36,719 nt of DNA from Thermoplasmatota archaeon (GCA_049619235.1 JBMZMP010000001.1:1-36719); one strand, 5' to 3'. Shown: positions 1-36,719, counted from the stretch's first letter. The notes: generated by a model from the sequence alone, not told the origin. Numbers and translations: made by a program.

Positions 1-1
1 G

Positions 2-235
2 GACGAAACCGACTCCGGCCTAGACATCGACGCCATGAAAGCGGTGGCAGAAGGGGTCAACAAGCTCAAGCGCGACGACAACGGCTTCCTGGTCATCACC
101 CACTACCAGCGCCTGCTCGACTACATCGTGCCCGACTACGTGCACGTGCTCGCCGACGGCAAGATTGTCAAAACCGGCGGCAAGGAACTCGCCTTGCAGC
201 TGGAAGACGAAGGCTACGCAACCATCGCGGAATGA
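2..235 (+). CDS. sufC: Fe-S cluster assembly ATPase SufC, C-terminal fragment (5' end outside window)
   Basis: The frame is open from base 2. Translation [22 protein letters not shown]...[44 protein letters not shown] matches the Walker B / D-loop / H-loop end of SufC. It is followed directly by sufD and sufS. Confidence 0.85.
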
Positions 236-236
236 C

Positions 237-1283
237 ATGATTGGAAAGGACGAACGGTACCTACACGCCCCCAAGGCCATCCTCAGCGTGGACGTGCTTC
301 CCGGCACCGTCCCAGACGCGCCTGACTTGGGCCTTCCGCAAATTCACCTACTCGACGGCCAACTCCAAGACACCAATCAACACGTTCGGGAATGGACGGC
401 CGCCGACGGCACCGACGAGGACCCGGACCACTTCGCCGCCATCAACCGCGACGAGGCCACCAACGGCGTGGTCATTACCGTCCCCAAGAACACGCAAGCG
501 GCGTACCACCTTGTCAACACCACGACGAAGCGCGTGGTGACCCGCGTGCACATTCACCTCGAAACCGGTGCCGAACTGCGACTCATCGAACACCACCTCG
601 GCCACGGCACCGTCAACCAAGTCACACGCATCACGCAAGACGCCAACAGCCACCTCAAGCACGACAAACTGCAAGAGGACACGGGCATCCGCGTGGACAC
701 GCTCAGCTGCGACATCCACCGGGACGCGAACTGCAAACTGGGAAACATCAGCCTCAACGGCGACGCCATCCGCAACACCGCGACCGCAAACCTCCTAGGA
801 GCCGGGGCACACGCCGCCATGCACGGCCTCTACGTGGTCGGCCGCAAGCGCCACGTGGATAACTGGACCCGCGTCGATCACGCAGTCGCCGACTGCACCA
901 GTGAACAACTCTACAAAGGTGTCCTCAGCGACGAAGGCCACGGCGCGTTCACCGGTAACATCCTCGTCCGCAAAGATGCACAACGCACACGCAGCGAACA
1001 AGAAAACCGCAACCTCCTCCTCAGCCGCAAAGCCCACGTGGACACCACGCCGCAACTGGAAATTCACGCCGACGACGTGCAATGCGCGCACGGCAGCACC
1101 GTGGGGCAACTGGACGAAGAAGCGTTGTTCTTCCTTCGAACCCGCGGCATCGGCGCCGAGGAAGCACGAGTCATGCTCACGAAGGCGTTCGTTCAAGAAG
1201 TGGTGGACCAATGCCAACCCGAAGTGCGCGAACTGATCACCAGCCGCATTGAAGCCTGGTTCATGCGCCACGAGGCCCCATGA
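237..1283 (+). CDS. sufD: Fe-S cluster assembly protein SufD
   Basis: ORF 165-1283 was trimmed to the in-frame ATG at 237, which lies 1 nt after the sufC stop (233-235). The C-terminus HADDVQCAHGSTVGQLDEEALFFLRTRGIGAEEARVMLTKAFV is the SufB/D signature in its SufD form. The stop overlaps the sufS ATG (ATGA, 1280-1283). Confidence 0.8.
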   Translation: MIGKDERYLHAPKAILSVDVLPGTVPDAPDLGLPQIHLLDGQLQDTNQHVREWTAADGTDEDPDHFAAINRDEATNGVVITVPKNTQAAYHLVNTTTKRVVTRVHIHLETGAELRLIEHHLGHGTVNQVTRITQDANSHLKHDKLQEDTGIRVDTLSCDIHRDANCKLGNISLNGDAIRNTATANLLGAGAHAAMHGLYVVGRKRHVDNWTRVDHAVADCTSEQLYKGVLSDEGHGAFTGNILVRKDAQRTRSEQENRNLLLSRKAHVDTTPQLEIHADDVQCAHGSTVGQLDEEALFFLRTRGIGAEEARVMLTKAFVQEVVDQCQPEVRELITSRIEAWFMRHEAP

Positions 1284-2491
1284 ATGTGGAAGAGATTCGG
1301 AAGGAATTCCCCCTCCTGCACCAAGACGTGCACGACCACCCCTTGGCGTACCTAGACAACGCCGCCACCAGCCAAAAGCCGCAATGCGTCATCGACAAAG
1401 AACGGCGGTACTACGAACTGGACAACGCAAACATCCACCGCGGCGTCCATGAATTGTCACAACGCGCCACGGACGAATACGAAAAAGCCCGGGAAAACAT
1501 CCGGGACTGGATCAATGCCCCCCGCGTGGAGGAATGCATCTTCGTCCGGGGCACCACGGAAGCCATCAACCTCGTCGCACAAACCTTTGGGCGCCAGCTT
1601 CAAGCAGGCGACGAAATCGTCATTGGCCACAGCGAACACCACAGCAACATTGTCCCCTGGCAACTATTGTGCAAAGAACGGGGCACCGTGCTTCGCGTCA
1701 TCCCCCTCAATGACAAAGGCGAATGGGACCTAAGCTCCCTCGACGCCGTCATCACGGACAAGTGCAAATTGGTCAGCGTCGGCCACGTCAGCAACGCCCT
1801 CGGCACCATCAACCAAGTCGGCCCCGTCATCGCCCGCGCCAAAGCCGTCGGTGCAGCCACGCTCCTCGACGGAGCCCAAGCGGTCCCACACATGAAAGTG
1901 GACGTCCAAGCACTCGGCTGTGACTTCTACGCATTCTCCGCCCACAAAATGTACGGCCCCACAGGCGTCGGCATCCTCTGGGGCCGCACTGAACTCCTCG
2001 AGGCCATGCCCCCTTGGCAAGGCGGTGGCGAAATGATCAACAAGGTCACTTTCGAAGAGACCACCTACAACGAAATCCCTCACAAATTCGAAGCGGGCAC
2101 CCCCAACATCGCGGGCGGCATTGGCTTTGGAGCCGCCATTGAGTTCCTGCGCCGAGTGGGCATCGAAAACATCGCCGCCCACGAAGCAGAACTGGAAGCG
2201 TACTGCACCGCAGAACTCTCCAAAATCGAAGGCGTGCGCCTCATCGGAACCGCCGCCGAAAAAGCAGGCGTCGTCAGTTTCGTCATCGACGGCGTGCACC
2301 CACATGACGTGGGCACCCTCGTGGACCGCTACGGCGTTGCCATCCGCACGGGCCACCACTGCGCCCAACCGGTCATGCAGCACTTCGACGTCCCAGCCAC
2401 CTGCCGCGCCAGTTTCGCATGCTACAACACCCGCGACGAAGTGGACCGCCTCATCGTCGCGTTGAAGAAAACCATTGAGCTGTTTGCATGA
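1280..2491 (+). CDS. sufS: Cysteine desulfurase SufS (class V aminotransferase)
   Basis: 403 aa. Motifs seen: LDNAATSQKP, HRGVHELS, FSAHKMYGPTGVGIL (PLP-Lys) and RTGHHCAQP (catalytic Cys loop). Sits in suf operon context. Confidence 0.9.
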   Translation: MNVEEIRKEFPLLHQDVHDHPLAYLDNAATSQKPQCVIDKERRYYELDNANIHRGVHELSQRATDEYEKARENIRDWINAPRVEECIFVRGTTEAINLVAQTFGRQLQAGDEIVIGHSEHHSNIVPWQLLCKERGTVLRVIPLNDKGEWDLSSLDAVITDKCKLVSVGHVSNALGTINQVGPVIARAKAVGAATLLDGAQAVPHMKVDVQALGCDFYAFSAHKMYGPTGVGILWGRTELLEAMPPWQGGGEMINKVTFEETTYNEIPHKFEAGTPNIAGGIGFGAAIEFLRRVGIENIAAHEAELEAYCTAELSKIEGVRLIGTAAEKAGVVSFVIDGVHPHDVGTLVDRYGVAIRTGHHCAQPVMQHFDVPATCRASFACYNTRDEVDRLIVALKKTIELFA

Positions 2492-15413: not shown

Positions 15414-16213
15414 TGGAGTACCGATTCGGAAACCTCGAGCAAACGCTCACCGGCTGGCCCACCCGGCTCCTCGCAAGCGCAGGCTTCGCAGGCATCCTCT
15501 CCCTCCTCGCCCTCATCAGTTTCCCCCTCCCCTGGACCCCGGTCCCCTTCTCCATGATGCCCCTGGGACTTCTCCTCGCAGGCGCATACCAGCGCCCGCT
15601 GTGGGGCTTCCTCTCCGTCGCCATGTACCTCGTGGCCGCAGGCATCGGCGCACCGATCTTTGCGGACGGGGAATCTGGCTGGAGCTGGTTCCTCGGCGCA
15701 AGCGGCGGCTACCTGTTCGGTTTCCTCCTCGTTTCGCCGCTCGTCGGTTGGTACATGCGGGAACGACGCGGCATGCTCCCCACCAAGTGGGTCGCCTTTG
15801 TCATCAGCGCGTTCACGCTCGCCGTCCTCGGTGGCCTCGGCGCCATCATTTGGATGACCACCACCGGAAGCAGCATCAGCAGCCTCGACGGAGACACGCA
15901 AAACTGGAACATGGGCCGTAGCACCCTCTGGGTTCTCCTGTTCCTCATCGTCGCCATGACCGCCCTGACGCTCACGTTCCTGCGCCGATACCGGCAACAA
16001 AGCCAAGAAGCGCTGAACCTGTTTCTTGTCATGATGGGCGCCATCATTGTGCTCCACACCTGCGGCGTCCTGGTCCTCTGGATGGCCACCTCCCTCACAT
16101 TCATGGAGGCATTGTTGCTTGGAAGCCTCGTCTTCTTACCCTTCGATGTACTCAAAAGCGGCCTCGCCGTCGCCCTCTCTCTGCCCTTCGTCCCCCCGGT
16201 GAACCATGACTGA
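15413..16213 (+). CDS. bioY: Biotin transporter BioY (solitary S-component)
   Basis: The GTG start shares one base with the megasynthase stop. Sequence PVPFSMMPLGLLLAGAYQRPLWGFLSVAMYLVAAGIGAPIFADG...GASGGYLFGFLL...FLPFDVLKSGLAVAL matches the BioY pattern. At 266 aa it is longer than usual, with a central insertion. Confidence 0.75.
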   Translation: MEYRFGNLEQTLTGWPTRLLASAGFAGILSLLALISFPLPWTPVPFSMMPLGLLLAGAYQRPLWGFLSVAMYLVAAGIGAPIFADGESGWSWFLGASGGYLFGFLLVSPLVGWYMRERRGMLPTKWVAFVISAFTLAVLGGLGAIIWMTTTGSSISSLDGDTQNWNMGRSTLWVLLFLIVAMTALTLTFLRRYRQQSQEALNLFLVMMGAIIVLHTCGVLVLWMATSLTFMEALLLGSLVFLPFDVLKSGLAVALSLPFVPPVNHD

Positions 16214-17774
16214 CATCAACAAAATTCTCGTTGCCAACCGCGGCGAAATCGCCCTTCGCGTAATGCGAACCGCCCGCGAACTCGGAATTGCAACCGTCGC
16301 CGTCCACAGCCCCGTGGACGCCAAGGCTGCCCACGTGCGCTTCGCCGACGAAGCCGTGGATCTTGGCGGCGACGCCGCATCCGAGAACTACCTCAACATC
16401 GACAAATTGGTCGAAGTTTGCAGCGACCACGGCGTGGACGCCGTGCACCCCGGCTACGGTTTCCTCAGCGAACGAGACGACTTCGTGGACGCACTTAGCA
16501 AAGCCAACGTCACATTCATCGGCCCACCCGCAAGCGCCATCCGAATCCTTGGGGACAAAGTGGCCAGCAAGGAAGCGGCCCGCAAGGCCGGCGTGCCCGT
16601 GGTTCCCGGCCTTGACAAATTCATCAACACCGTGGACGAGGCGAAGGAAGTGGCGGAGCTCACCGGTTACCCGCTCATCATCAAAGCCGCATTCGGTGGC
16701 GGCGGCATGGGCATGCTCGTGGTGGAGAAAGAGGAAGACCTGGAAGCTTCCCTCATCGCCACGCAACGGCAAGCCAAAGCCGCCTTTGGCCGCGGCGAAG
16801 TGTTCATTGAGAAATTCATTGGGCGCCCCCGTCACATCGAATTCCAAATGGTTGCTGACCAACACGGCCACGCCGTGCACTTCGGGGAACGGGAATGCAG
16901 CATCCAACGCCGCCACCAGAAACTCATCGAAGAAGCGCCAAGCCCCATTGTCACGGAAGAGGAACGGCAAGAAGTTGGTGGCAGCGTCGCCAAATTGCTC
17001 ATCGACGTGGGCTACACCAACGCGGGCACCGCTGAATTCCTGTACGAAGATGGCAACTTCTTCTTCAACGAAGTCAACACCCGCCTGCAAGTGGAACACC
17101 CTGTCACGGAGCAGGTGTACGGCATGGACCTCGTGGCGGAGCAAATCCGCATCGCCCGCGGCGAGGAACTCGGCTACGACCAAGCATGGGTGAATGCCCG
17201 CAAGCGCGGCTGGAGCATCGAGTGCCGCATCAACGCCGAGGACCCCGCGCAGAACTTCATGCCCACCCCAAGCCTCGTCAAGCGACACAACCCCCCCATG
17301 GGCAGCGGCATCCGCTTGGACACGTTCCTCTACCCCGGATTCCAAGTGCCAGCCATTTACGACTCCATGGTCGCCAAACTGATCACCACCGGCAGCGACC
17401 GCGCCGAAGCCATTCGCAAAATGGAACGCGCCCTCGACGAATACGACCTCGGAGACATGACCACCAACAAGGAACTCCACGCGCTCCTCATGCGCAACGA
17501 ACATTTCCGCGCCGGTGACATGACCACGAAGTTCCTCGACGAACACGGCATCATTGACCAATACCTCGGCAACCAAGCCGGCGCAAGCGACGCAGCAAAG
17601 CGCCGCCTCGCTGCCATCGCCGCGGTGCTGGCCGAACAACCCGGCGGCATCGACGCCATGGTTGCAAAGAACTACGGGTTCAAGGCTGGCGTGGGCGTGG
17701 ACGAACACGGCCGCAGAAAGCTCAACGCATGGGGCCAACGGTCTCGCGGCGAAAGCAACGGAAGGTGGGCCTAA
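16206..17774 (+). CDS. accC: Biotin carboxylase subunit of acyl-CoA carboxylase
   Basis: 522 aa. Motifs seen: ILVANRGEIALRVMRTARELGI, HPGYGFLSE, YPLIIKAAFGGGGMGM, HIEFQMVADQHG, ERECSIQRRHQKLIEE and EVNTRLQVEHPVTE. The start overlaps the bioY stop by 8 nt, and GGTGA (16198-16202) lies upstream. Confidence 0.92.
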   Translation: MTDINKILVANRGEIALRVMRTARELGIATVAVHSPVDAKAAHVRFADEAVDLGGDAASENYLNIDKLVEVCSDHGVDAVHPGYGFLSERDDFVDALSKANVTFIGPPASAIRILGDKVASKEAARKAGVPVVPGLDKFINTVDEAKEVAELTGYPLIIKAAFGGGGMGMLVVEKEEDLEASLIATQRQAKAAFGRGEVFIEKFIGRPRHIEFQMVADQHGHAVHFGERECSIQRRHQKLIEEAPSPIVTEEERQEVGGSVAKLLIDVGYTNAGTAEFLYEDGNFFFNEVNTRLQVEHPVTEQVYGMDLVAEQIRIARGEELGYDQAWVNARKRGWSIECRINAEDPAQNFMPTPSLVKRHNPPMGSGIRLDTFLYPGFQVPAIYDSMVAKLITTGSDRAEAIRKMERALDEYDLGDMTTNKELHALLMRNEHFRAGDMTTKFLDEHGIIDQYLGNQAGASDAAKRRLAAIAAVLAEQPGGIDAMVAKNYGFKAGVGVDEHGRRKLNAWGQRSRGESNGRWA

Positions 17775-18277
17775 TGCGGTACGCATTCCGACTGGGGCAA
17801 CACACCCACAAATTGACGCGCCAAGAACGCGCCGAGGGGCCCCTGTACAAGATTGAAGAATCCGAGTACGAACCCGCTGTGGAAGCCAAAGGCAACGGCA
17901 GCTACCGCGTGGTCGTGGACGATCAAGTCTTCGAGTTCTCCCTAAAAGACGGTGTCCTCTACGAAGGCGCCAGCCCACTGGACTTGGAAATTAGCCGCGC
18001 CAAGCCGGAACTGATTCGCGCCGGCGGCAAAGGCCGCAAAGGCGACGGACGCATCAAACCCCCGATGCCGGGCAAGATTGTGGAAGTGCCAGTCAAGGAA
18101 GGTGACGAAGTCCAAGAGGGCCAAGTGGTCATCATCTTGGAAGCCATGAAGATGCAAAACGACATCAAGGCGCCCTTCGGAGGCATCGTCCAAAAGGTGC
18201 ACGTGCAGGAAGGTTCGAACGTGGAAGCAACCACCGTCATGGTAGACATTGCTCCCCACGCGGAGCCCGAAGCATGA
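17774..18277 (+). CDS. accB: Biotin carboxyl carrier protein (biotinyl domain)
   Basis: ORF 17729-18277 was trimmed to ATG 17774, which overlaps the accC stop (TAATG). The C-terminus PMPGKIVEVPVKEGDEVQEGQVVIILEAMKMQNDIKAPFGGIVQKVHV carries the EAMKM biotinylation motif. Confidence 0.8.
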   Translation: MRYAFRLGQHTHKLTRQERAEGPLYKIEESEYEPAVEAKGNGSYRVVVDDQVFEFSLKDGVLYEGASPLDLEISRAKPELIRAGGKGRKGDGRIKPPMPGKIVEVPVKEGDEVQEGQVVIILEAMKMQNDIKAPFGGIVQKVHVQEGSNVEATTVMVDIAPHAEPEA

Positions 18278-27897: not shown

Positions 27898-28902
27898 TCA
27901 GTCTGCCAGGAACGTGTGGTTCATGGCGGTTTCCGCGATGTCGATGGCGTAGGAGCGGACGCGGTCCACGGAGTCGGCAATGAGTGTGAGTGGCCCCACG
28001 ACCTCTGCCTGCAAATCATTGGTGAGCTTGCTGAACGTTGCCCTCCAGCCACCGCCTTGTTTGCCGAGATCCACGGCTTGGCTGCTTTGGTCGAAGTCGG
28101 TTCGCTTCAATCCGGTGAAGCCTTCGTCCCAGACGGTTCGGACGCGGGCCACTTGTTCGAGGATGCTGTTTCGCACGTCTTCGGGGAGGGATTCCATTTC
28201 CCGCACGTTCTTGCAGATTTTGCTGGCGTGGTCTCCCATGCGTTCCAGGGTGCGGGCGACGAGGAAGAAGTTGAGCGCTTCGGCGGGTCGAATGGCGAGG
28301 CGTGCTGCGAGGCGGGGCTGTTCGAGAAGCGCGTGCATTTGTTTGCTCACGTGCCATTCGAGGCGGTCCAGTTCGTCGTCGCGGCTGGTGACGTCTTCGG
28401 CGAGGTCGTGGTCCATGGTTTGCATGGCTTCGATGGCGTCGTCGAACATGATGCGGGCGATGCGGTGCATGCGCGTGACGGTTTTTCGCAGGTCCATTTC
28501 ACTGGCACCGACGAGGTCTTGCAAGGTGACCGATTCGCTGTTTTCTTCAAGGATTTCCACGCCAACGAGGTCGCGGATGGCGTTGCGGATGGTGCTGCGT
28601 TGTGCGGCGTCAAGGCGGCCTTCGCGGGAGATGTGGATTTCGTCGGCACCGGCGAGGTAGGCCCCAATGAGTTGACGCGTGATGGCTTCGGGGCCGGCGT
28701 CTTTGAGTTTGATTTCGACGCGGCGTTTGCGCGGGCGCATGTCTGCGTGGGGGACGATGAGGAGGCTGCCGTCGCTTTCCTCGTGGATGGCAAGGTTGTC
28801 GCTGCGCGTGAGGCCGCTTCGGTCGATCCATTTTTTTGGCAGGCTGATCACGTGCGTGCTTCCGCCCGTCACCTGGATTTTCCGTAGTTCCACGTTTGCC
28901 AC
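27898..28902 (-). CDS. AbrB/SpoVT-domain + PhoU-domain fusion protein (putative archaeal phosphate-responsive regulator)
   Basis: Only the last 334 codons of ORF 27898-30201 are plausible. The start is taken as GTG 28902 (MANVELRKIQVTGGSTHVISLPKKWI, a swapped-hairpin AbrB motif); GTG 28893 is an alternative. Two PhoU repeats follow (...DDELDRLEWHV...LVARTLERMGDHASKI...SYAIDIAE). Confidence 0.8.
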   Translation of the reverse strand: MANVELRKIQVTGGSTHVISLPKKWIDRSGLTRSDNLAIHEESDGSLLIVPHADMRPRKRRVEIKLKDAGPEAITRQLIGAYLAGADEIHISREGRLDAAQRSTIRNAIRDLVGVEILEENSESVTLQDLVGASEMDLRKTVTRMHRIARIMFDDAIEAMQTMDHDLAEDVTSRDDELDRLEWHVSKQMHALLEQPRLAARLAIRPAEALNFFLVARTLERMGDHASKICKNVREMESLPEDVRNSILEQVARVRTVWDEGFTGLKRTDFDQSSQAVDLGKQGGGWRATFSKLTNDLQAEVVGPLTLIADSVDRVRSYAIDIAETAMNHTFLAD

Positions 28903-28936
28903 GATGGGCAGGTAGACATCATGTCTTCGTATAGTT

Positions 28937-28946
28937 TCTCTATAGA
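28937..28946. promoter_or_regulatory. Pho-locus motif copy 1: TCTCTATAGA
   Basis: Lies 35 nt upstream of the AbrB-PhoU start (28902, minus strand) and immediately after the ArsR-like stop. A partial second TATAG lies at 28930-28934. Confidence 0.5.
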
Positions 28947-29294
28947 TTATTGTGGGGGTGTGCGGGTTGCAGGTGGCTGGTATGGCTGCCCGGCCCGCGT
29001 TGCTTCGGTGATGTGGCCTAAGCGCGTTCCCACTTGACCAAGCTCTGCCAACAGGAGGGCCAAGTGGGGGTCGGCAATGCTGTAGCGGCGCGAACGGCCC
29101 ATGGGACGGCTGCGCACAATCCCCTGCTCCTTCAACTTCCGCAATTGGTGGCTCACGTTGGATTGTTCCACCTTTGTGTAGGCTACGAGGTCGGAGACGG
29201 TTGCACCTCCTTGCAGCAGCCGCGTCAAAATGGCTCGCTTGGTGGGTTCCGTCATCAAATGGATCAGGGACAAGCCATCCATATGAACCAACAT
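28947..29294 (-). CDS. ArsR/SmtB-family winged-HTH transcriptional regulator
   Basis: 115 aa. EPTKRAILTRLLQGGATVSDLVAYTKVEQSNVSHQLRKLKEQGIV is the ArsR HTH signature. The start could be ATG 29282. Confidence 0.75.
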   Translation of the reverse strand: MLVHMDGLSLIHLMTEPTKRAILTRLLQGGATVSDLVAYTKVEQSNVSHQLRKLKEQGIVRSRPMGRSRRYSIADPHLALLLAELGQVGTRLGHITEATRAGQPYQPPATRTPPQ

Positions 29295-29321
29295 TCATGC
29301 GAACATGAAGAGGCTTTTCAT
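29283..29321. promoter_or_regulatory. Array of ATGAA/TTCAT half-sites including the perfect palindrome TTCATG-N4-CATGAA in the divergent ArsR/NikR control region
   Basis: ATGAA at 29283-29287, TTCAT at 29294-29298, ATGAA at 29305-29309 and TTCAT at 29317-29321. The central inverted repeat is 29294-29299 / 29304-29309. Confidence 0.4.
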
Positions 29322-29341
29322 TCAGACCAAGATGGCACAGC

Positions 29342-29719
29342 ATGGCCGTGGTCAGTGTCAGCCTCCCAGACGAACTCGTCGCATCCATGGATGAAGACAT
29401 CCAACGGCGCAACTTCAAAGGCCGCAGCGAATGGCTTCGCGCCGCAGCACGGGAACACCTGCAGCAAACCACCGAATCCGAAGGCCACCTGCACGGCAGC
29501 ATCACACTTTCATACAAGCACGGGCACGAAAACCGCATCAGCGACGTGCGCCACCAGTTCCATGACGTGGTCCTCAGCATGATGCACACCCACTGCGACC
29601 CCACCCTCTGCATGGACGTGCTCATTGTCGGCGGCCCTGCGGAAACCGTGCGGGAACTGCAAGCGACCCTCCTGCGCCTGCCGGCCATCAAGACCTCCGT
29701 GCTGGTTGCCATTGAGTAA
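29342..29719 (+). CDS. nikR: NikR-family ribbon-helix-helix metalloregulator
   Basis: 125 aa. The N-terminal RHH is VSVSLPDELVASMDEDIQRRNFKGRSEWLRAAAREHL. The C-terminal metal-binding ACT-like domain has His/Cys motifs (HGHE, HQFHD, MMHTHCD). Confidence 0.72.
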   Translation: MAVVSVSLPDELVASMDEDIQRRNFKGRSEWLRAAAREHLQQTTESEGHLHGSITLSYKHGHENRISDVRHQFHDVVLSMMHTHCDPTLCMDVLIVGGPAETVRELQATLLRLPAIKTSVLVAIE

Positions 29720-29743
29720 ATAGGCAAACTGCAATGGCGCCTT

Positions 29744-30331
29744 GTGGCCGACGATTTCCAAGACCCCGACATTGGCATCTGGAAAGTGTACACGCGGGGC
29801 GGCGACAAAGGCGAAACCAGCCTCGTTGGCGGACAACGGGTCTCCAAGACGGACGCACGCATCGACGCATATGGAACCGTGGATGAATTGGGTGCCATCG
29901 TTGGCCTCATCCGGGCCGAACTCGGATCCGAAACCGCCCAACTGGATGCACACCTCACCCGCGTCCAACATGCACTGTTCAACACGGGCAGCATCCTCGC
30001 CACCTTGCCTGGCGACCGCGGGCCCAAGCAACCTGCGGTTCGGCAAGCGGACATTGACAACCTGGAACATTGGATGGATGCAGCAAACGATGGCTTGCCC
30101 GCCCTCACCAGTTTCGTGCTTGCAGGTGGAAGTCGACTCAATGCGTTGCTGCACCTGGCACGCACCGTGTGCCGACGGGCGGAGCGGCTGGCCGTTGCCA
30201 TGAATGATGGCCACTACGACTTGGAGGTGGCCTACCTGAACCGCCTGTCCGATGCGTTCTTTGTTTGGGCGCGCTGGGCTGCGGCGCAGTTGGGGCACGA
30301 AGAAGTGCTCTGGGCACCCAACCAGGCATAG
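29744..30331 (+). CDS. PduO-type ATP:cob(I)alamin adenosyltransferase
   Basis: YTRGGDKGETSL...RIDAYGTVDELGAIVG...RTVCRRAER is the PduO/MMAB signature. The start is GTG 29744; the in-frame GTG at 29786 (giving MYTRGGDKGETSL) is equally plausible. Confidence 0.78.
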   Translation: MADDFQDPDIGIWKVYTRGGDKGETSLVGGQRVSKTDARIDAYGTVDELGAIVGLIRAELGSETAQLDAHLTRVQHALFNTGSILATLPGDRGPKQPAVRQADIDNLEHWMDAANDGLPALTSFVLAGGSRLNALLHLARTVCRRAERLAVAMNDGHYDLEVAYLNRLSDAFFVWARWAAAQLGHEEVLWAPNQA

Positions 30332-30341
30332 TTCTCAATCT

Positions 30342-30351
30342 TCTCTATAGA
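30342..30351. promoter_or_regulatory. Pho-locus motif copy 2: TCTCTATAGA
   Basis: Lies 52 nt upstream of the pstS ATG (30403) and 11 nt after the preceding stop codon. Confidence 0.5.
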
Positions 30352-30402
30352 AACAAGGGGATTTTGCTAAACTTGGCAACCAATCGTGGGCGTTTGAGCA
30401 AC

Positions 30403-31308
30403 ATGAACACCAAGCTCCTACTCACAGTCGCCAGCCTCTGTGCGCTCGCAATCTCTGGTTGCGTCAGCTCAGAAACCATCATCCAAGAAGGCAGCAGCAC
30501 CGTGGAACCCCTTGCCAAAGTATGGGCCAACGAAGTCGCAGCCCAAGGCCTCGACGTCATCGTGGATGGCGGTGGCTCCGGCCACGGCGGCAAAGGCATC
30601 TGCACCGGTGAATTGACCATCGGTGACATGAGCCGCGCCATGAAGACGTCCGAAAAGGAACTGTGCGCCCAAAACGGCATCACGCCCCTCGTCTGGAAAG
30701 TGGCCCTCGACGCCCTTTCCGTCGTCACCTCGAAAGGTAGTTTCGTGGACGACTTGACTGTGGATCAACTCGCAGATATCTTTGGCAACCCAGAAGTCAC
30801 GCACTGGGACCAAGTGGACGCAGGCTTCCCATCCACGGCCATCAGCCTCTGCTTCCCTGACGCCGGCAGCGGCACCTACGACTACTTCCTCGAAGAAGTG
30901 CTCGAAGACCACGAATTCAACTACAAGACCGAGCAACAAGTCGCAAGCGGCGCCACCCACTTGCAAAGCGCAAACGACGAACAAATCGTCAACTGCGTGA
31001 AGGACAACGACAACGCGATTGCCTTCTTCGGCTTCAGCTACTACGACTCCAACCGTGCAACCCTCGATGCAGTGAACATTGGTGGTGTCTCCCCAAGCAT
31101 CGCCAACGTGGTCAGCGGTGCCTACAGCCCGCTTGGTCGCTACCTCTACATGGTCACCAGCAGCGAACTCAGCGCCCCCGTGGTGGAGTACTTCGCCTAC
31201 GCCCTCAACGAAGGTCAAGCCGAGTCCTTGATGGTTGGTGCTGGCTTCATCCCCTTGGATGGTCCCACCTTGACTGAGATGCGGGAACAACTGGAACGCT
31301 ACGCCTAG
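30403..31308 (+). CDS. pstS: Phosphate ABC transporter substrate-binding lipoprotein PstS
   Basis: ORF 30265-31308 was trimmed to ATG 30403. The signal peptide has a lipobox (LCALAISGC). Motifs seen: GSSTVEPLA, GGGSGHGG and DMSRAM. Confidence 0.85.
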   Translation: MNTKLLLTVASLCALAISGCVSSETIIQEGSSTVEPLAKVWANEVAAQGLDVIVDGGGSGHGGKGICTGELTIGDMSRAMKTSEKELCAQNGITPLVWKVALDALSVVTSKGSFVDDLTVDQLADIFGNPEVTHWDQVDAGFPSTAISLCFPDAGSGTYDYFLEEVLEDHEFNYKTEQQVASGATHLQSANDEQIVNCVKDNDNAIAFFGFSYYDSNRATLDAVNIGGVSPSIANVVSGAYSPLGRYLYMVTSSELSAPVVEYFAYALNEGQAESLMVGAGFIPLDGPTLTEMREQLERYA

Positions 31309-31358
31309 GGCGCCAGGGAAGGACGGCCGCTTCGGACAGAACATCCCTGCGGCCCCGG

Positions 31359-31441
31359 TCCCCGTCCTCTCCCTCTCTTTCTTTTCCCTGTCCTTCTTCT
31401 CCCTCTTCCAAATTCTTCCGTTTTTGCATCCTGTTTGTTTT
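31359..31441 (+). terminator. Polypyrimidine (C/T) tract followed by oligo-T runs downstream of pstS
   Basis: Positions 31359-31409 hold only 2 purines in 51 nt. A T5 run lies at 31421-31425 and a T4 run at 31438-31441. Oligo-T is the usual archaeal termination signal. Confidence 0.35.
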
Positions 31442-31531
31442 GCGTGCTGTCTCTCCAGCCGCTCCGTTGGGGCTGGTGGTTGCTTTTGGTTGTCTATTGC
31501 GAATCCATGCGAAGGAACCCTGACGCAATAT

Positions 31532-31541
31532 TCTCTATAGA
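31532..31541. promoter_or_regulatory. Pho-locus motif copy 3: TCTCTATAGA
   Basis: Lies 44 nt upstream of the in-frame GTG at 31585 of pstS-downstream gene pstC. It is followed by a degenerate CTCTATCG at 31542-31549. Confidence 0.45.
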
Positions 31542-31584
31542 CTCTATCGCCAAACCCTATCCTTCCCACGCATACCCCCACCAT

Positions 31585-32529
31585 GTGAACCGACTGCAAC
31601 CCACCGCGCGAGGCGTCCGAACCAAGGACCGACTCGCCGCCATCAGCTTCCGGACGGCCGCATACAGCGTCTTCGGAATCGTGGGACTCATCCTCTGGCT
31701 GCTACTTGGAAACAGCCTCGTCTTCCTCACCGAAACCAGCTTCAGCGAGTTCCTAACCGGAAACCGCTGGATCGTCACCAGCACCGAAAGCAGCAACGCA
31801 TACGGCATCATGGCCCCCCTCAGCGGCACACTCATGGTCGCCATTGGAGCGCCCATCCTCGCCGTGCCCTTCGGTCTCGCCGGCGCCATCTACCTCGCCG
31901 AGTACGCACAACCCCGCGTCCGCGCCATCGTCAAACCCACCCTCGAAATTCTCACCGGCATCCCAAGCATCGTCATGGGATTCTTCGCCTTCCAAGTCAT
32001 CAACCCCTGGATCCGCAGCATCACCGAACCCGGCGACGCCCTCTACTACCTAAGCGGCGGCAACAGCGCCGAGCAATACAACATGCTCAGCGCCATCATC
32101 GCAGTCGCCATCATGATCCTCCCCATCATCGTCACCTTCAGCGAAGACGCCATCCGGGCCGTGCCCAAGCACCTCAAAGAAGCCAGCATGGGCCTCGGCG
32201 CCACCAAATGGGAAACCACTCGCAAAGTGGTCTTCCCAGCCGCCATCAGCGGCATCACCGCAAGCGTCGTCCTCGCCGTGGCCCGCGCCATCGGCGAAAC
32301 CATGGCCGTGACCATGGCAGCCGGAACAGCCCAATACGTCAACTTCAACCCATTCGCAGGTGCACTCACTGCAACCAGCGCCATCGCCAACACAGCAGCC
32401 AACGACATCGCCCACGACGGCCCCGCCTACAGCAGCCTGTTCATGGTCGGGTTGGTGCTGTTCCTGCTCACGCTGGTCATGAACCTCATCGCGCAACGAA
32501 TCGTCAAGAAATTCAGGGAGGAAGAATGA
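31585..32529 (+). CDS. pstC: Phosphate ABC transporter permease PstC
   Basis: Multi-TM permease with an EAA-like loop (EASMGLGATKWETTRKVVFPAA). The start is taken as GTG 31585 (314 aa) because motif copy 3 lies upstream of it. ATG 31507 and the ORF start at 31435 are alternatives. The stop overlaps the pstA ATG. Confidence 0.8.
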   Translation: MNRLQPTARGVRTKDRLAAISFRTAAYSVFGIVGLILWLLLGNSLVFLTETSFSEFLTGNRWIVTSTESSNAYGIMAPLSGTLMVAIGAPILAVPFGLAGAIYLAEYAQPRVRAIVKPTLEILTGIPSIVMGFFAFQVINPWIRSITEPGDALYYLSGGNSAEQYNMLSAIIAVAIMILPIIVTFSEDAIRAVPKHLKEASMGLGATKWETTRKVVFPAAISGITASVVLAVARAIGETMAVTMAAGTAQYVNFNPFAGALTATSAIANTAANDIAHDGPAYSSLFMVGLVLFLLTLVMNLIAQRIVKKFREEE

Positions 32530-33434
32530 ACCTCAAACCCTCCCCGCAACTGCACCGCCGGCACCGCCGAGAACGCGTGGCAAAAACGCTCATGACTGCC
32601 ATGAGCTGGAGCATCGTCGCCATCCTCGTCCTCATCCTGTGGCGAGTCATCGGTGCAGGCACCGTCGCCTTCGACGCAAGCTTCTGGACCACGGAATACT
32701 CCCCGCAAAGCCAACCGTTCAACGCCACCACGGACAACGCCAACGATCTCGCCACCGGCGTCTTCGACTCCATCATGTACAGCGTCATCATGCTCGCCGT
32801 TACCATGGTCTTCGCGGTCCCCATCTCCTTGATGGCAGGCATCTACCTACACGAATACGCAAGGCCCGGAAAGGTCACCAACGCGATCCGAACCGCCGTG
32901 AGCAACCTCGCCGCAGTCCCAAGCATTGTCTGGGGTCTCCTTGGGCTTGCCATTTTCGTTCGGTTCCTTTCCCTCGGAAAGAACCCGCTCGCCTCCGGAT
33001 TGACACTTGGCATCCTCGTGTTGCCAATCCTCATCGTCAGCACCGAAGAAGCCCTCAAGACCATTCCAAAGGAAGTCCGACACGCAAGCCTCGCCCTCGG
33101 CGCCAACCGCTGGCAGACCATCAAGAGCCACGTGGTCCCCTACGCCATGCCCAACATCCTCACCGGCCAAATCGTCGCCCTCGCACGAGCCGCCGGGGAA
33201 ACCGCTCCGCTCCTCTTGCTAGGGGCCGGATCCTACCGCGCACTCATCCAGTATGGTTTGCTGGAACCCGGGGCCGCCTTGCAGACCCGGGCCTACAAAC
33301 TCATCCTAGGCGCGCACGAAGTGGACAAAGCAACCGGCGCTGGCGCCATCGTCATCCTCCTCATCGTCACCCTTAGCCTCAACCTCACAGCCATCATCCT
33401 GCGGCAACGACTCGCATCCAAAATCAAGTGGTAA
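32526..33434 (+). CDS. pstA: Phosphate ABC transporter permease PstA
   Basis: ORF 32208-33434 was trimmed to ATG 32526 (ATGA overlap with pstC). [20 protein letters not shown] is the EAA loop. The protein is multi-TM. Confidence 0.85.
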
Positions 33435-33436
33435 CC

Positions 33437-34189
33437 ATGAACGTACTCCAAATCAACAACCTCGACTTCCACTACGGCGACAACCAAGCCCTGTGGGACA
33501 TCCAACTCGACATCCCCGCCAACCAAGTCACCGCGTTCATTGGCCCAAGCGGCTGCGGAAAATCCACGCTGCTACGGTGCCTCAACCGCATGAACGACCT
33601 CATCCCAGGCACCAAGCTCACCGGCACCATCGCCTTGAACGGGGAAGACTTGTACGAAGCCTCCGTCGACCCCGTCGCCGTCCGCCACCACGTGGGTATG
33701 GTGTTCCAGAAACCCAACCCCTTCCCCAAGAGCATCTTCGACAACATCGCCTTCGGCATCAAGTTGCACGAACAATTGAGCAAAGAAGAACTGGCCGAAC
33801 GGGTGCAATGGGCGCTTGAAAAAGCACATCTTTGGGACGAAGTCAAAGACCGCCTGCAAGAACCCGGCACCGGCCTCAGTGGCGGCCAACAGCAACGGCT
33901 CTGCATTGCACGAGCACTCGCCGTGAAACCGGAAATCCTCCTCATGGACGAACCATGCAGCGCCCTCGACCCCGTCGCCACCCAGAAAATCGAAGACCTC
34001 ATCTTGGAACTCAAAAAAGAAGTCACCATCGTCATCGTCACCCACTCCATGAGCCAAGCGGCTCGTGTCAGTGACAAAACCGCGTTCTTCTACAAGGGAG
34101 AACTGGTCGAAGCAGGTGCAACCAAACGACTCTTCGAAAACCCACAAGAGGAACTGACAGAACAATACATCACCGGCAGGTTCGGCTAA
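33437..34189 (+). CDS. pstB: Phosphate ABC transporter ATPase PstB
   Basis: Motifs seen: [20 protein letters not shown] (Walker A), [15 protein letters not shown] (signature), [11 protein letters not shown] (Walker B) and VTHSM. GTG 33428 is an alternative start. Confidence 0.9.
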
Positions 34190-34213
34190 ATCCACTGCCA
34201 CCCACTCACACTC

Positions 34214-34951
34214 ATGAAAATGAACATAGCACACGTAAGCGACTTCCATGCCAGCGGCAGTTGGTTCGACGAACAAGCTTTCGAAAAAGGCCTGAAACTC
34301 GTAAACGACCTCAACGTGGACCAAGTCATCTTCACCGGCGACTTGACCGACCACGGGCTCCCGGCGGAATACGAAAAAACATTGCCCCTGCTGCAACGAT
34401 TTGCAGCCCCCGTCTCCTGCGTCATGGGCAACCACGACGCCATGCGGGAAGGATGGCGCATCTTCATCGAAGAGCTCCTCGGCGGCGAACGGTACTACGC
34501 CAAGCCGATGGGGGAATTCCAATTTGTTGGACTCGACAGCGCAGAACCAGATGTGAATGAAGGTCACGTGGGTCGCGAACAAATGGCCTGGTTCCGCAAG
34601 CAAGCAAACGGAAAACCAGCGCTGGTGGCACTGCACCACCACGTCATCCCCGTCCCCTTCACGGGTCGAGAACGCAACATCCTCCTGGACTCCGGCGACT
34701 TGTTGCTGGCATTGGACGAATGCAAAGTGCCTCTGGTCTTCACAGGGCACAAGCACCAACCATGGGCATGGCGCGTCAACGACACCGTCATCAGCACCAC
34801 GGGCACCTTCTGTTCCAAGAAAACCAACTGCGGCCAATCCTTCAACCACATCCAAATCGACGGCGATGACTTGCTGATTGAGAACGTGGACGTGAACACG
34901 GGCGTTGCCCGAAAGCTCGGCCAATGGAAACTCCCAACGTTGATCCCATGA
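34214..34951 (+). CDS. Calcineurin-like metallophosphoesterase
   Basis: Motifs seen: HVSDFH, FTGDLTDHG, GNHD, LHHH and TGHKH. These are the five metallophosphoesterase motifs in the correct order. Confidence 0.75.
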   Translation: MKMNIAHVSDFHASGSWFDEQAFEKGLKLVNDLNVDQVIFTGDLTDHGLPAEYEKTLPLLQRFAAPVSCVMGNHDAMREGWRIFIEELLGGERYYAKPMGEFQFVGLDSAEPDVNEGHVGREQMAWFRKQANGKPALVALHHHVIPVPFTGRERNILLDSGDLLLALDECKVPLVFTGHKHQPWAWRVNDTVISTTGTFCSKKTNCGQSFNHIQIDGDDLLIENVDVNTGVARKLGQWKLPTLIP

Positions 34952-35604
34952 GCAGGCAAGGAATGGTTTCCGAACTGGAAACATTGGAAAACCAAGTCTT
35001 GGAAATGGCCAAGCTTGCAACGGACATGCTCTCCGAAGGCACTCGTTCTTTGGAGCAATTGGACCGGGACATGGCCGCAGCGGTGATCGACCGGGCGGAC
35101 CGTTTGGCAGAACTGGATGAGCAAATCGAAACCGGCTTGCTGAGCTTCCTTGCACTCCAAAGCCCACTTGCGGGGGACCTCCGCCGCGTGGGGGCCGCGC
35201 TGAAATTGATTACGTACATCAACCGCATTGGGCGCTACGGCTACGACATCGCGAAGGCAACCGCTGCGTGGCCGGCGGACTTGGAACACGTGGCCAAAAT
35301 GGTGGACCTGCGCGAAATGAGCGACAAGGTGCTTGCCATGGTGGAATTGGTCGTTGGCGCGTTCAAGGCGCACTCGGTTCCCGACGTGGCGGCATTGAAG
35401 TCCTTGGAGGATGACGTGGATGCGTTGCGCTACGGCGTGTGGCGCCAGTGCTTGTCGTACATGGATGAATCTAAGGTGAACATTGAGCGCTGCACCCATT
35501 ACATGATGGTGGCGCGGTACCTGGAGCGCTGTGGTGACAACGTCTGCAAGATGGCGGAAAAGCAACATTACGCGGCAACTGGCACCCGGATCTTCATCGA
35601 TTGA
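34948..35604 (+). CDS. phoU: Phosphate signalling/transport accessory protein PhoU
   Basis: Two PhoU repeats (...DRADRLAELDEQIE...YINRIGRYGYDIAK...EDDVDALRY...VARYLERCGDNVCKMAE). The start is taken as ATG 34948 (ATGA overlap with the upstream stop); ATG 34924 is an alternative. Confidence 0.85.
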   Translation: MSRQGMVSELETLENQVLEMAKLATDMLSEGTRSLEQLDRDMAAAVIDRADRLAELDEQIETGLLSFLALQSPLAGDLRRVGAALKLITYINRIGRYGYDIAKATAAWPADLEHVAKMVDLREMSDKVLAMVELVVGAFKAHSVPDVAALKSLEDDVDALRYGVWRQCLSYMDESKVNIERCTHYMMVARYLERCGDNVCKMAEKQHYAATGTRIFID

Positions 35605-35630
35605 GGCGCCCCAGCCAGCAAACCCCCAAA

Positions 35631-35655
35631 TCTCTATAGAAGCTATATTCTATAG
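35631..35655. promoter_or_regulatory. Pho-locus motif copy 4: TCTCTATAGA plus a second TTCTATAG
   Basis: TCTCTATAGA at 35631-35640 and TTCTATAG at 35648-35655, which is 41-65 nt upstream of the PiT start at 35696. Confidence 0.5.
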
Positions 35656-35695
35656 TGGGCAGGGTCTTACTGGAAACTGGCTCGGCTCTCAATAG

Positions 35696-36719
35696 ATGCT
35701 AGACTTTGGATTTCTAAGCGTAGAAACCATCATTGTCCTCGCCGGTGCCTTCGGCCTCTACATGGCCTGGACCATCGGTGCAAACGACGTCGCAAACGCC
35801 ATGGGAACCAGCGTCGGAAGCGGCGCGCTCACACTCAAGAAAGCCATCATCGTTGCCGGTGTCCTCGAATTCGCAGGAGCCGTCCTCGCAGGTGGAAGCG
35901 TCACAGGAACCGTCCGCAAAGGCATCCTCGACGCAGAAACCACCTTCGTGCGCCACAACACCACCATGGTGCAAGGCAACATGACTGCAAACGGAACCAT
36001 GGGCCCCAGCACCGCCGGCCCCGGTCTCGAATTCGCCCCCGAACTCTACATCTACGGCATGCTCGCAGCCCTCCTCGGCACAGCCATCTGGCTCACCATC
36101 GCAACCTACTGGGGCATGCCCGTCAGCACCACCCACTCCATCGTCGGCGGTGTCATCGGCGCCGGTCTCTTTGCAGCCGGCAGCTTCTACGGCTGGAGCA
36201 ACGCCGGCATGGGCGTCGCCTGGGACAAAGTCGGCGACATCGTCGCAAGCTGGCTCTTTGCACCCCTCCTCGGCGGCATCATCGCCTTCCTCCTGTTCTG
36301 GCTCATCAAACTGGTGATCTTCAACAACCCCGACCCCATCGCAGCCACCCGCAAATGGCGCCCCCTGTTCATCTTCCTCGACGTGCTCATCATCGCCATG
36401 GCCACCCTCCTCAAGGGCCTCAAGAACGTGGACTGGTACAAGAGCATCGGACTCACCGAAGGCGAGCAATGGTTCTACAGCTTCCTCATCGCAGCCCTCG
36501 TCACCCTCGTGGCTGAAGTCATCATCCGCAAACGCGCAGGCAATCTCGAAGCCGCCCCAGGCAAGGAGACCTACAAAGTGGTCGAACGGCAATTCATTGC
36601 ACTCCAAGTGGTTACCGCAGGCAGCGTCGCCTTCGCACACGGAGCCAACGACGTGGCAAACGCCATCGGCCCACTCGCAGGCATCGTCAGCGTGGCCCAA
36701 GAAGGCGCCTTCGTCGCAA
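35696..36719 (+). CDS. pit: PiT-family inorganic phosphate transporter, 3' end outside window
   Basis: This gene is not in the ORF track because it has no in-window stop. My own translation from ATG 35696 gives MLDFGFLSVETIIVLAGAFGLYMAWTIGANDVANAMGTSVGSGALTLKKAIIVAGVLEFAGAVLAGGSV...YWGMPVSTTHSIVGGVIGAG, and near the end AFAHGANDVANAIGPLAGI. These are the two PHO4 repeat signatures. Confidence 0.85.
   Translation, partial: MLDFGFLSVETIIVLAGAFGLYMAWTIGANDVANAMGTSVGSGALTLKKAIIVAGVLEFAGAVLAGGSVTGTVRKGILDAETTFVRHNTTMVQGNMTANGTMGPSTAGPGLEFAPELYIYGMLAALLGTAIWLTIATYWGMPVSTTHSIVGGVIGAGLFAAGSFYGWSNAGMGVAWDKVGDIVASWLFAPLLGGIIAFLLFWLIKLVIFNNPDPIAATRKWRPLFIFLDVLIIAMATLLKGLKNVDWYKSIGLTEGEQWFYSFLIAALVTLVAEVIIRKRAGNLEAAPGKETYKVVERQFIALQVVTAGSVAFAHGANDVANAIGPLAGIVSVAQEGAFVA

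Follow-up and report, generated by a model that had tools for sequence, protein, structure and literature searches.

Background

To our knowledge, the regulation of phosphate sensing and uptake in archaea, which takes place without PhoR/PhoB, is poorly understood, and AbrB-PhoU fusion proteins are only predicted regulators. Here we describe a palindromic box, CTATAG, that recurs in front of the phosphate (pho) genes in a stretch of 36,719 nucleotides of Thermoplasmatota DNA (GCA_049619235.1, JBMZMP010000001.1:1-36719), the whole of which is referred to below as the window. The boxes are present before these genes, are specific for pho promoters, are conserved in related archaea and hold a defined position relative to the start codon. 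Judged from sequence comparison, they probably form a Pho-regulon operator (an archaeal Pho box), with the autoregulated AbrB-PhoU protein as its predicted binder.

The nearest known system is that of Halobacterium salinarum, in which up-regulation at low phosphate requires, according to a second-hand report (Kliemt et al. 2019, PMC6560208, citing Furtwangler 2010), the pho-boxes in the pst1 and pst2 promoters. There, likewise, a cis-element in archaeal pst promoters is attributed to PhoU-type regulators. The boxes described here are likewise in pst promoters, before pstS and pstC of the window and before their orthologues in relatives. They were derived purely from genome comparisons among uncultured Thermoplasmatota and, unlike in the H. 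salinarum report, recur upstream of AbrB-PhoU homologues from several further lineages of archaea. No description of a CTATAG motif was found in full-text literature searches, which did not cover the primary H. salinarum paper of 2010.

The bacterial Pho box resembles the proposed operator in regulon content, as it, too, serves pstS and the pst operon together with phosphatase genes and the gene of the regulator itself, and in its logic of autoregulation. It differs in anatomy, consisting of direct 7-bp repeats (CTGTCAT-type) with an 11-bp period (4-bp spacers) that replace the -35 element, whereas here palindromic hexamers, spaced mostly 7, 9 or 11 bp, are found upstream of an archaeal TATA element. 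It also differs in its reader, an OmpR-family winged-helix protein phosphorylated by PhoR; the candidate binder here is the AbrB-PhoU fusion. Direct CTGTCAT-type repeats were not seen in the four pho promoters of the window, and no PhoB or PhoR was seen in the window.

The met boxes of MetJ are 8-bp palindromes in 2–5 tandem repeats, each bound by one small dimer, with cooperative binding. By analogy, the 6-8-bp palindromes described here, in arrays of 2–3 with a spacing of 7–11 bp, may be compared to met-box arrays and to AbrB, MazE and SpoVT operators, all of them sites of small DNA-binding proteins that read with a beta-sheet, although bacterial AbrB has no strict consensus and the present box is sharply defined. 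Archaeal activators at sites just upstream of the TFB recognition element (BRE) and TATA box recruit TBP/TFB. Such sites (Ptr2, TFB-RF1 and GvpE-type upstream activating sequences) resemble the present arrays in their position directly upstream of BRE/TATA (approximately -37 to -60) and in their weak core elements, but the proteins belong to families different from AbrB-PhoU.

Results and discussion

Motif copies in the window

The initial annotation, based on the sequence alone, had listed four exact copies of a 10-mer, each before a phosphate gene. A scan of the whole window, together with Pfam, bore this out: TCTCTATAGA is present exactly four times, always on the plus strand (at 28937, 30342, 31532 and 35631), and its count in 100 dinucleotide-preserving shuffles of the window was 0. 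As had also been noted, though not from an exhaustive scan, there is no copy outside the phosphate locus; all matches in the window are inside it. Allowing up to one mismatch in the palindromic 8-bp core, TCTATAGA, yielded six matches against 0.99 expected, and all six were located in the four pho promoters. Besides the four exact copies, these comprise TCTATAGT (35649) and TCAATAGA (35689). The tetranucleotide TATA occurs 10 times in the window (approximately 60% G + C), 7 times within the same four promoters. CTATAG with one mismatch was not enriched over the whole window (23 matches, 21.9 expected); the signal is only in the exact CTATAG boxes and in near-exact boxes clustered next to exact ones.

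As annotated, a T stands before three of the copies, and partial copies are present where they had been annotated (GTATAG at 28929–28934, CTCTATCG at 31542–31549 and TTCTATAG at 35648–35655). Other details were corrected. Each copy is indeed just upstream of its gene, but every gap is 1 nt smaller than first given, the distance from motif end to start codon being 34 nt for AbrB-PhoU, 51 nt for pstS, 43 nt for pstC and 55 nt for PiT. Copy 1 does precede AbrB-PhoU, but this gene is on the minus strand, so that the copy is inverted relative to it, and an ArsR-family gene had been missed. Finally, the 10-mer is exact in all four places, but the recognised unit could be refined to the hexamer CTATAG in arrays of 2–3.

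Specificity for phosphate promoters in related loci

A genome scan with the AbrB-PhoU protein yielded 20 loci, 19 from Thermoplasmatota-type relatives (58–72% identity, conserved synteny) and one from Nitrososphaera (L020). In this conserved arrangement, the ArsR-like gene and AbrB-PhoU are read in one direction, and the genes for a NikR-like protein and a PduO-type adenosyltransferase, pstS, pstCAB, phoU and PiT in the other. Genes were called with a codon-usage log-odds model trained on the window; the set so called comprised 282 genes in 258 kb. The promoters counted are those of transcription-unit-leading genes in the window and the 19 related loci. An exact CTATAG was present in 32 of the 49 pho promoters, versus 3 of the 141 other promoters (Fisher p = 1.5e-20); at least two boxes were present in 29 of the 49 versus 2 of the 141. 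The three non-pho promoters with CTATAG are each in a divergent intergenic region that also serves AbrB-PhoU or pstB. Within the 258 kb, all exact copies of TCTATAGA are intergenic and nearly all are 35–65 nt upstream of AbrB-PhoU, pstS, pstC, pstB or PiT; with up to one mismatch, the sequence is intergenic in all but one case. The enrichment before phosphate genes for which the initial annotation had suggested a search is therefore present in the window and the 19 related loci, and the motif is also conserved before the orthologous AbrB-PhoU, pstS, pstC and PiT genes.

Generic promoters of this lineage carry TTTAWMA-type boxes approximately 27–31 nt upstream of the start codon, or else GGAGG in their leaders. 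Given these promoters and the counts above, CTATAG was rejected as a generic promoter element. A TTTATAG before the carboxyltransferase gene at 4732 was rejected as a pho site and is an ordinary TATA box.

Two unlabelled genes in loci L017 and L018 with TCTATAGAGAAAC upstream were identified as PstS. In locus L016, positions 1..1995 encode a PhoD-family phosphatase with a twin-arginine signal, preceded by CCATAGA-gatg-CCATAGA and then ATAAAG approximately 22 nt before the start codon; this phosphatase is likely a further regulon member in a relative.

'Uncultured Halobacteriales archaeon' and 'bacterium' are the record titles of L017 and L018, yet the AbrB-PhoU proteins encoded there share 58% identity with those of Thermoplasmatota, and the promoter architecture is the same; the taxonomic labels look doubtful.

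Box anatomy and position

The predicted recognition unit is the palindromic hexamer CTATAG, with TCTATAGA as its best form and CTATAT, CAATAG and CTATTG as variants. Pho promoters usually contain two boxes and sometimes three, and the box starts are separated by 7 (commonest), 9 or 11 bp, as in TCTATAGACTATTG, in CTATAGTCTATAGAGA and, for PiT promoters, in CAATAG-T-CTATAG-AGAAG-CTATAG. When 21 AbrB-PhoU promoters were stacked on the conserved (M/V)ELR start, a conserved block AATCTcTATAGAcTATTg appeared at -55..-37 and a second block, CCCTAT(C), at -30..-24. The distance from CCCTAT(C) to the start codon is constant in the AbrB-PhoU promoters of relatives (23–24 nt), and the palindrome ends 43–46 nt before the AbrB-PhoU start in most related loci. 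In the orthologous pstS promoters, CAATAG-TCTATAGA or CTATAGAGAAAC is found at about -55 to -69. The composite site occurs in both orientations relative to the gene, as TCTATAGA-CTATTG before AbrB-PhoU and as CAATAG-TCTATAGA before pstS, which fits a regulator site and not a direction-setting BRE/TATA pair. TCTATAGAGAAACTATAC, which is copy 1 read in the direction of the AbrB-PhoU gene, is unchanged in relatives with 93% and 81% identical AbrB-PhoU, and generally the CTATAG box is phylogenetically conserved at orthologous promoters while its flanks diverge.

The initial annotation had left open whether the motif is an operator or a specialised TATA/BRE variant. In the latter case phosphate-regulated mRNAs would have leaders of approximately 20 nt and the palindrome, flanked by a BRE, would be their TATA box; regulation would act via alternative TBP/TFB preference or via a factor on the downstream CCCTATC. 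The box does contain TATA, a tetranucleotide of which this GC-rich DNA has very few other copies. Its centre is at approximately -47 from the start codons, and non-pho promoters also have a class of A/T-rich elements at -41..-50; in addition, an A-rich stretch (AAT/AAA) is often present 5' of the box, as for a BRE, and in L017 and L018 pstS has a Shine-Dalgarno sequence (GAGGA), with no evident TATA from the box to the start. In archaea, a TATA box is one A/T-rich octamer that is centred at about -26/-27 relative to the transcription start and oriented by the BRE. We nevertheless consider a TATA box unlikely, since the boxes come in arrays of 2–3 and in both orientations, and since a second conserved element is present in this lineage 23–24 nt before the start codon, that is, at -27. 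Moreover, the presumed leaders of PiT, pstC and many AbrB-PhoU genes contain no Shine-Dalgarno sequence, which several genes with leaders in this lineage do have, as GGAGG, and in the PhoD promoter two boxes are followed by ATAAAG at -27.

Recurrence in distant archaea

A metagenome scan with an AbrB-PhoU alignment added 80 loci, most with 30–38% identity and with G + C contents from 31% to 71%; in many of the 80, pstSCAB-phoU is divergent from AbrB-PhoU. De-duplication left 53 loci. The density of CTATAG/CTATATAG in the 53 loci was 4.96 per kb over the 150 nt before AbrB-PhoU, 0.55 per kb in other intergenic DNA and 0.15 per kb in coding DNA; upstream of AbrB-PhoU, 39 were observed and 4.05 ± 2.0 expected under a first-order Markov model. 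Candidatus Bathyarchaeota / Bathyarchaeum is the label given to one box-bearing group.

Annotated plasmids of cultured haloarchaea were sampled as well. The AbrB-PhoU promoter reads TCTATAGA-cacaagtag-TTTTATAT-N25-ATG in Natrinema salinisoli (N9 to the TATA box), TCTATAGA-N10-TTTATATT-N22-ATG in Halostagnicola larsenii and CTATATAT-N10-TTTTATCA-N23-ATG in Halococcus dombrowskii. In these three genera, a distinct, canonical TATA box follows the palindrome at a distance of 9–12 nt, where that of a leaderless mRNA would be expected, which again argues against the palindrome being the TATA box itself. In Haladaptatus, TCTATAGA is found 65 nt upstream of a metallophosphoesterase gene. The motif is therefore present before distant AbrB-PhoU homologues too, in metagenomic loci as well as in haloarchaea. 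In Nitrososphaera (L020), suggestive TATAG repeats precede pstC, pstB and AbrB-PhoU, but this locus is A/T-rich (57 CTATA/TATAG in 10.9 kb).

These data also bear on the idea that the repeats act at the RNA level, are due to chance or generic, or are left over from a mobile element, and have no phosphate role at the DNA level. Pairing of the palindromes within a transcript is conceivable, and four identical 10-mers could stem from recent copying. Chance, however, produced no copies in the shuffles; Rfam and tRNA scans of the window gave no match to an Rfam family or a tRNA; and the boxes keep the same promoter positions from 93% down to approximately 30% protein identity with diverging flanks. 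They occur in both orientations and, in haloarchaea, upstream of a canonical TATA box and hence outside the transcript. We regard an origin of this kind as highly improbable.

The AbrB-PhoU protein and neighbouring regulators

The fusion claimed in the initial annotation was recovered by Pfam as an N-terminal SpoVT/AbrB domain and a PhoU domain, both above the gathering score (PhoU, 8e-21, 74.6 bits; MazE_antitoxin, 1.4e-6, 28.6 bits, cut-off 24.7). In the AlphaFold2 (AF2) model (mean predicted local distance difference test score 82.9), a beta domain at the N-terminus is followed by a middle domain and, at the C-terminus, by the six-helix bundle of PhoU, and Foldseek matched the model to solved PhoU structures, including 1xwm and 4q25, with target-normalised template modelling (TM) scores of up to 0.82; a solved structure of an AbrB-PhoU fusion was not found. 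The AbrB segment RK.Q.TG.ST..SLPK.W is nearly invariant among the AbrB-PhoU proteins compared, including the distant metagenomic and haloarchaeal ones. Homologues of the protein derive from metagenome-assembled genomes of Thermoplasmatota, which upholds the archaeal origin of the window. AbrB-PhoU, a predicted one-component regulator encoded beside copy 1, is the most likely binding protein; indirect support comes from the boxes before its own gene in several lineages and from the conserved AbrB segment.

The middle domain (residues ~61–129; 28516–28722, minus strand) has a beta-alpha-beta-alpha-beta-beta order in the AF2 model and no Pfam match. Foldseek gave weak matches to Alba/Sso10b-type nucleic-acid-binding proteins (E 0.3–0.9, target-normalised TM ~0.5–0.6). 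Going by the model, it may be a second DNA-contacting or oligomerisation module.

The 440-bp region after copy 1 was considered as an RNA gene and rejected, as it holds a minus-strand open reading frame of the ArsR/SmtB family (Pfam HTH_5, 2e-14; NCBIfam HTH_metalloreg, 6e-20). The order ArsR-like gene, then AbrB-PhoU is kept in many relatives. A pho-specific operator could also be bound by another regulator, and this winged-helix protein encoded upstream of copy 1 is an example: in many relatives, as in the window, 0–10 nt separate the end of its gene from the box, and palindromes are commonly read by winged-helix dimers. Against this, the box is kept where no ArsR gene is adjacent (L006, L012, L013, L015–L019, distant metagenomic loci and haloarchaea), and an 8-bp palindrome with abutting 4-bp half-sites in 7-bp tandem repeats would seem too compact for typical winged helix-turn-helix dimers. 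The ArsR gene start also has a different palindrome of its own, TTCATG-N4-CATGAA (29294–29309). Binding by another regulator is in our view improbable.

The palindrome at the ArsR-like gene start, which it overlaps, reads TTCATG-cgaa-CATGAA in full. Divergent from the ArsR-like gene is a NikR-like gene (29342–29719, plus strand) with ribbon-helix-helix and NikR_C domains. In the relatives L007, L009, L013, L014, L016 and L019, TTCATAAC-N13-GTTATGAA is found 5' of the NikR-like gene, and this region looks like a separate NikR-type operator. With this distinct operator of its own, the NikR-like protein was rejected as the binder of the boxes.

Proposed mechanism

A box array precedes each phosphate transcription unit, namely AbrB-PhoU, pstS, pstCAB-metallophosphoesterase-phoU and PiT, and PhoD in a relative. 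Of the two readings in the initial annotation, the operator of AbrB-PhoU is favoured and the specialised TATA/BRE variant is less likely. In the proposed circuit, dimers of the N-terminal SpoVT/AbrB domain would read the short palindromes, the PhoU bundle would report phosphate status and the protein would regulate its own gene. The arrays are centred approximately 40–60 nt before the start codons, some 20 bp upstream of a weak TATA-like element near -27 of mRNAs that are probably leaderless or have very short leaders. Because the array adjoins the BRE/TATA region, a bound protein would control the recruitment of TFB/TBP.

The favoured sign would be activation at low phosphate, on intrinsically weak TATA boxes, but this is a guess. 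As for Ptr2, TFB-RF1 and GvpE, the array occupies the position of known archaeal activator sites; the -27 elements (CCCTATC, CTAAAC, CTTACT) are weak; and pho-boxes of H. salinarum were reported, second-hand, as essential for up-regulation (PMC6560208). Alternatively, AbrB-PhoU could repress at high phosphate by occluding BRE/TATA, which would fit the negative role of bacterial PhoU; at the PiT promoter, the CAATAG box on the start codon (35690–35695) would fit repression as well.

Several observations weigh against an operator of AbrB-PhoU. An exact CTATAG is missing from 17 of the 49 pho promoters, though most of the 17 carry one-mismatch boxes, and at least one perfect box was found in only 32 of the 53 distant loci. 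The pst/AbrB-PhoU locus of Haloferax volcanii pHV4 (HVO_A0477-A0481) contains no convincing box; the AbrB segment of its AbrB-PhoU homologue is divergent. Given the TATA inside the box and the non-pho A/T-rich class described above, the palindrome could serve as the TATA box for mRNAs whose leaders have ~20 nt. In many relatives, the ArsR-family gene directly upstream of copy 1 encodes a possible binder within this lineage. As to the sign of regulation, PhoU proteins are negative regulators in bacteria.

Features of the phosphate locus

The coordinates of the boxes, promoter elements and genes are listed in Table 1.

Table 1. Boxes, putative promoter elements and genes of the phosphate locus (positions are those of the window)
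Feature	Position	Strand	Remarks
AbrB-PhoU gene	27898–28902	-	start GTG 28902 (or GTG 28893); candidate regulator
Proximal box GTATAG (CTATAC in gene direction)	28929–28934		26 nt upstream of GTG 28902
Copy 1, TCTCTATAGA	28937–28946	+	core TCTATAGA at 28939–28946; between ArsR-like stop codon and AbrB-PhoU start
ArsR-family gene	28947–29294	-	stop codon (28947–28949) adjoins copy 1
Degenerate box CTCAAT	30334–30339		5' of copy 2
Copy 2, TCTCTATAGA	30342–30351	+	10 nt past the cobalamin adenosyltransferase stop codon, 51 nt before pstS ATG
CTAAAC	30367–30372	+	putative weak TATA element of pstS
pstS	30403–31308	+	own transcription unit; lipoprotein, phosphate-binding; Pfam PBP_like_2
Box CTATTG	31494–31499		tentative upstream box of the pstC promoter; a single one-mismatch hexamer
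Copy 3, TCTCTATAGA, directly followed by CTCTATCG	31532–31549	+	box CTATCG at 31544–31549
CCCTATC	31555–31561	+	conserved second element; 23 nt before GTG 31585
pstC-pstA-pstB-metallophosphoesterase-phoU operon	31585–35604	+	contiguous or overlapping genes; Pfam
pstC	31585–32529	+	Pfam
Metallophosphoesterase gene	34214–34951	+	calcineurin-like; between pstB and phoU; Pfam
phoU	34924–35604	+	overlaps the end of the metallophosphoesterase gene
Copy 4, three-box array	35631–35655	+	CTATAG 35634–35639, CTATAT 35643–35648, CTATAG 35650–35655; starts 9 and 7 bp apart
Extra box CAATAG	35690–35695		adjoins PiT ATG, inside TCTCAATAGA (35687–35696)
PiT (PHO4 family) phosphate transporter gene	35696–36719	+	runs past the window end; Pfam PHO4, 2e-65

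For AbrB-PhoU in close relatives, gene callers choose the GTGGCCAAC start. The proximal box GTATAG is at the position of the conserved -30..-24 element of relatives; it is a second box and/or would serve as the weak TATA element of a leaderless AbrB-PhoU mRNA. The pstC promoter consists of TCTATAGA, 13 nt, CCCTATC, 23 nt and GTG, in which CCCTATC would be the weak TATA box of a leaderless operon mRNA. CTAAAC is assigned to pstS by its position; its place is taken by CCTATAC or CCCTATG in the pstS promoters of relatives. Three-box arrays like that of copy 4 are present in the PiT promoters of six relatives, with a spacing of 7+11 or 9+7. The CAATAG box at the PiT ATG may be a start-site-overlapping site; it was not conserved in the PiT promoters of relatives and is specific to the window.

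The PstS translation contains the lipobox AISGC. Directly 5' of the pstS ATG, GAGCAcc/GAGGAcc is present in the window (30396–30402) and in L001, L003, L005, L014, L016 and L019, among pstS orthologues that are only ~42–46% identical; it may mark the start site of a short leader or act as a minimal Shine-Dalgarno sequence. The spacer between pstS and pstC (31309–31584) is 276 bp and contains a long pyrimidine-rich tract (~31358–31430) with a T5 run (31421–25). In sequence the tract looks like an archaeal terminator, which suggests a separate pstS transcript, probably more abundant than that of pstCAB. The metallophosphoesterase gene between pstB and phoU is missing at that place in most relatives.

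Elsewhere in the window, positions 6300–15413 (plus strand) encode a 3037-aa protein with the domain order KS-AT-ACP(x4)-KR-DH-PPTase, like the polyunsaturated fatty acid synthase PfaA or a type I polyketide or fatty-acid synthase. It is flanked by parts of an acyl-CoA carboxylase, namely carboxyltransferase, BioY, biotin carboxylase and biotin carboxyl carrier protein (4732–6291, 15413–16213, 16206–17774 and 17765–18277). Archaea mostly lack ACP-dependent fatty-acid synthesis, so such a protein is unusual for an archaeon.

Conclusions

It is conceivable, and we suggest it tentatively, that CTATAG is the general archaeal Pho box, read by the AbrB domain of AbrB-PhoU regulators, and that Thermoplasmatota, Halobacteria, Bathyarchaeia and perhaps Nitrososphaeria have retained it along with autoregulation and its linkage to pst genes. 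If this is true, an ancient archaeal phosphate circuit is present in place of the bacterial PhoR-PhoB system, and its definition at the sequence level is new. A sharply defined and widely conserved box is a concrete target for binding assays, and it makes Pho regulons predictable in uncultured archaea; here, these would comprise pstS, pstCAB, PiT, PhoD and a metallophosphoesterase. With TCTATAGA present in the cultured Natrinema and Halostagnicola, the model may be open to genetic testing, and it would supply phosphate-controlled promoters for archaeal genetics. The finding is unsurprising in kind, but it makes the regulation of phosphate uptake in archaea directly testable.

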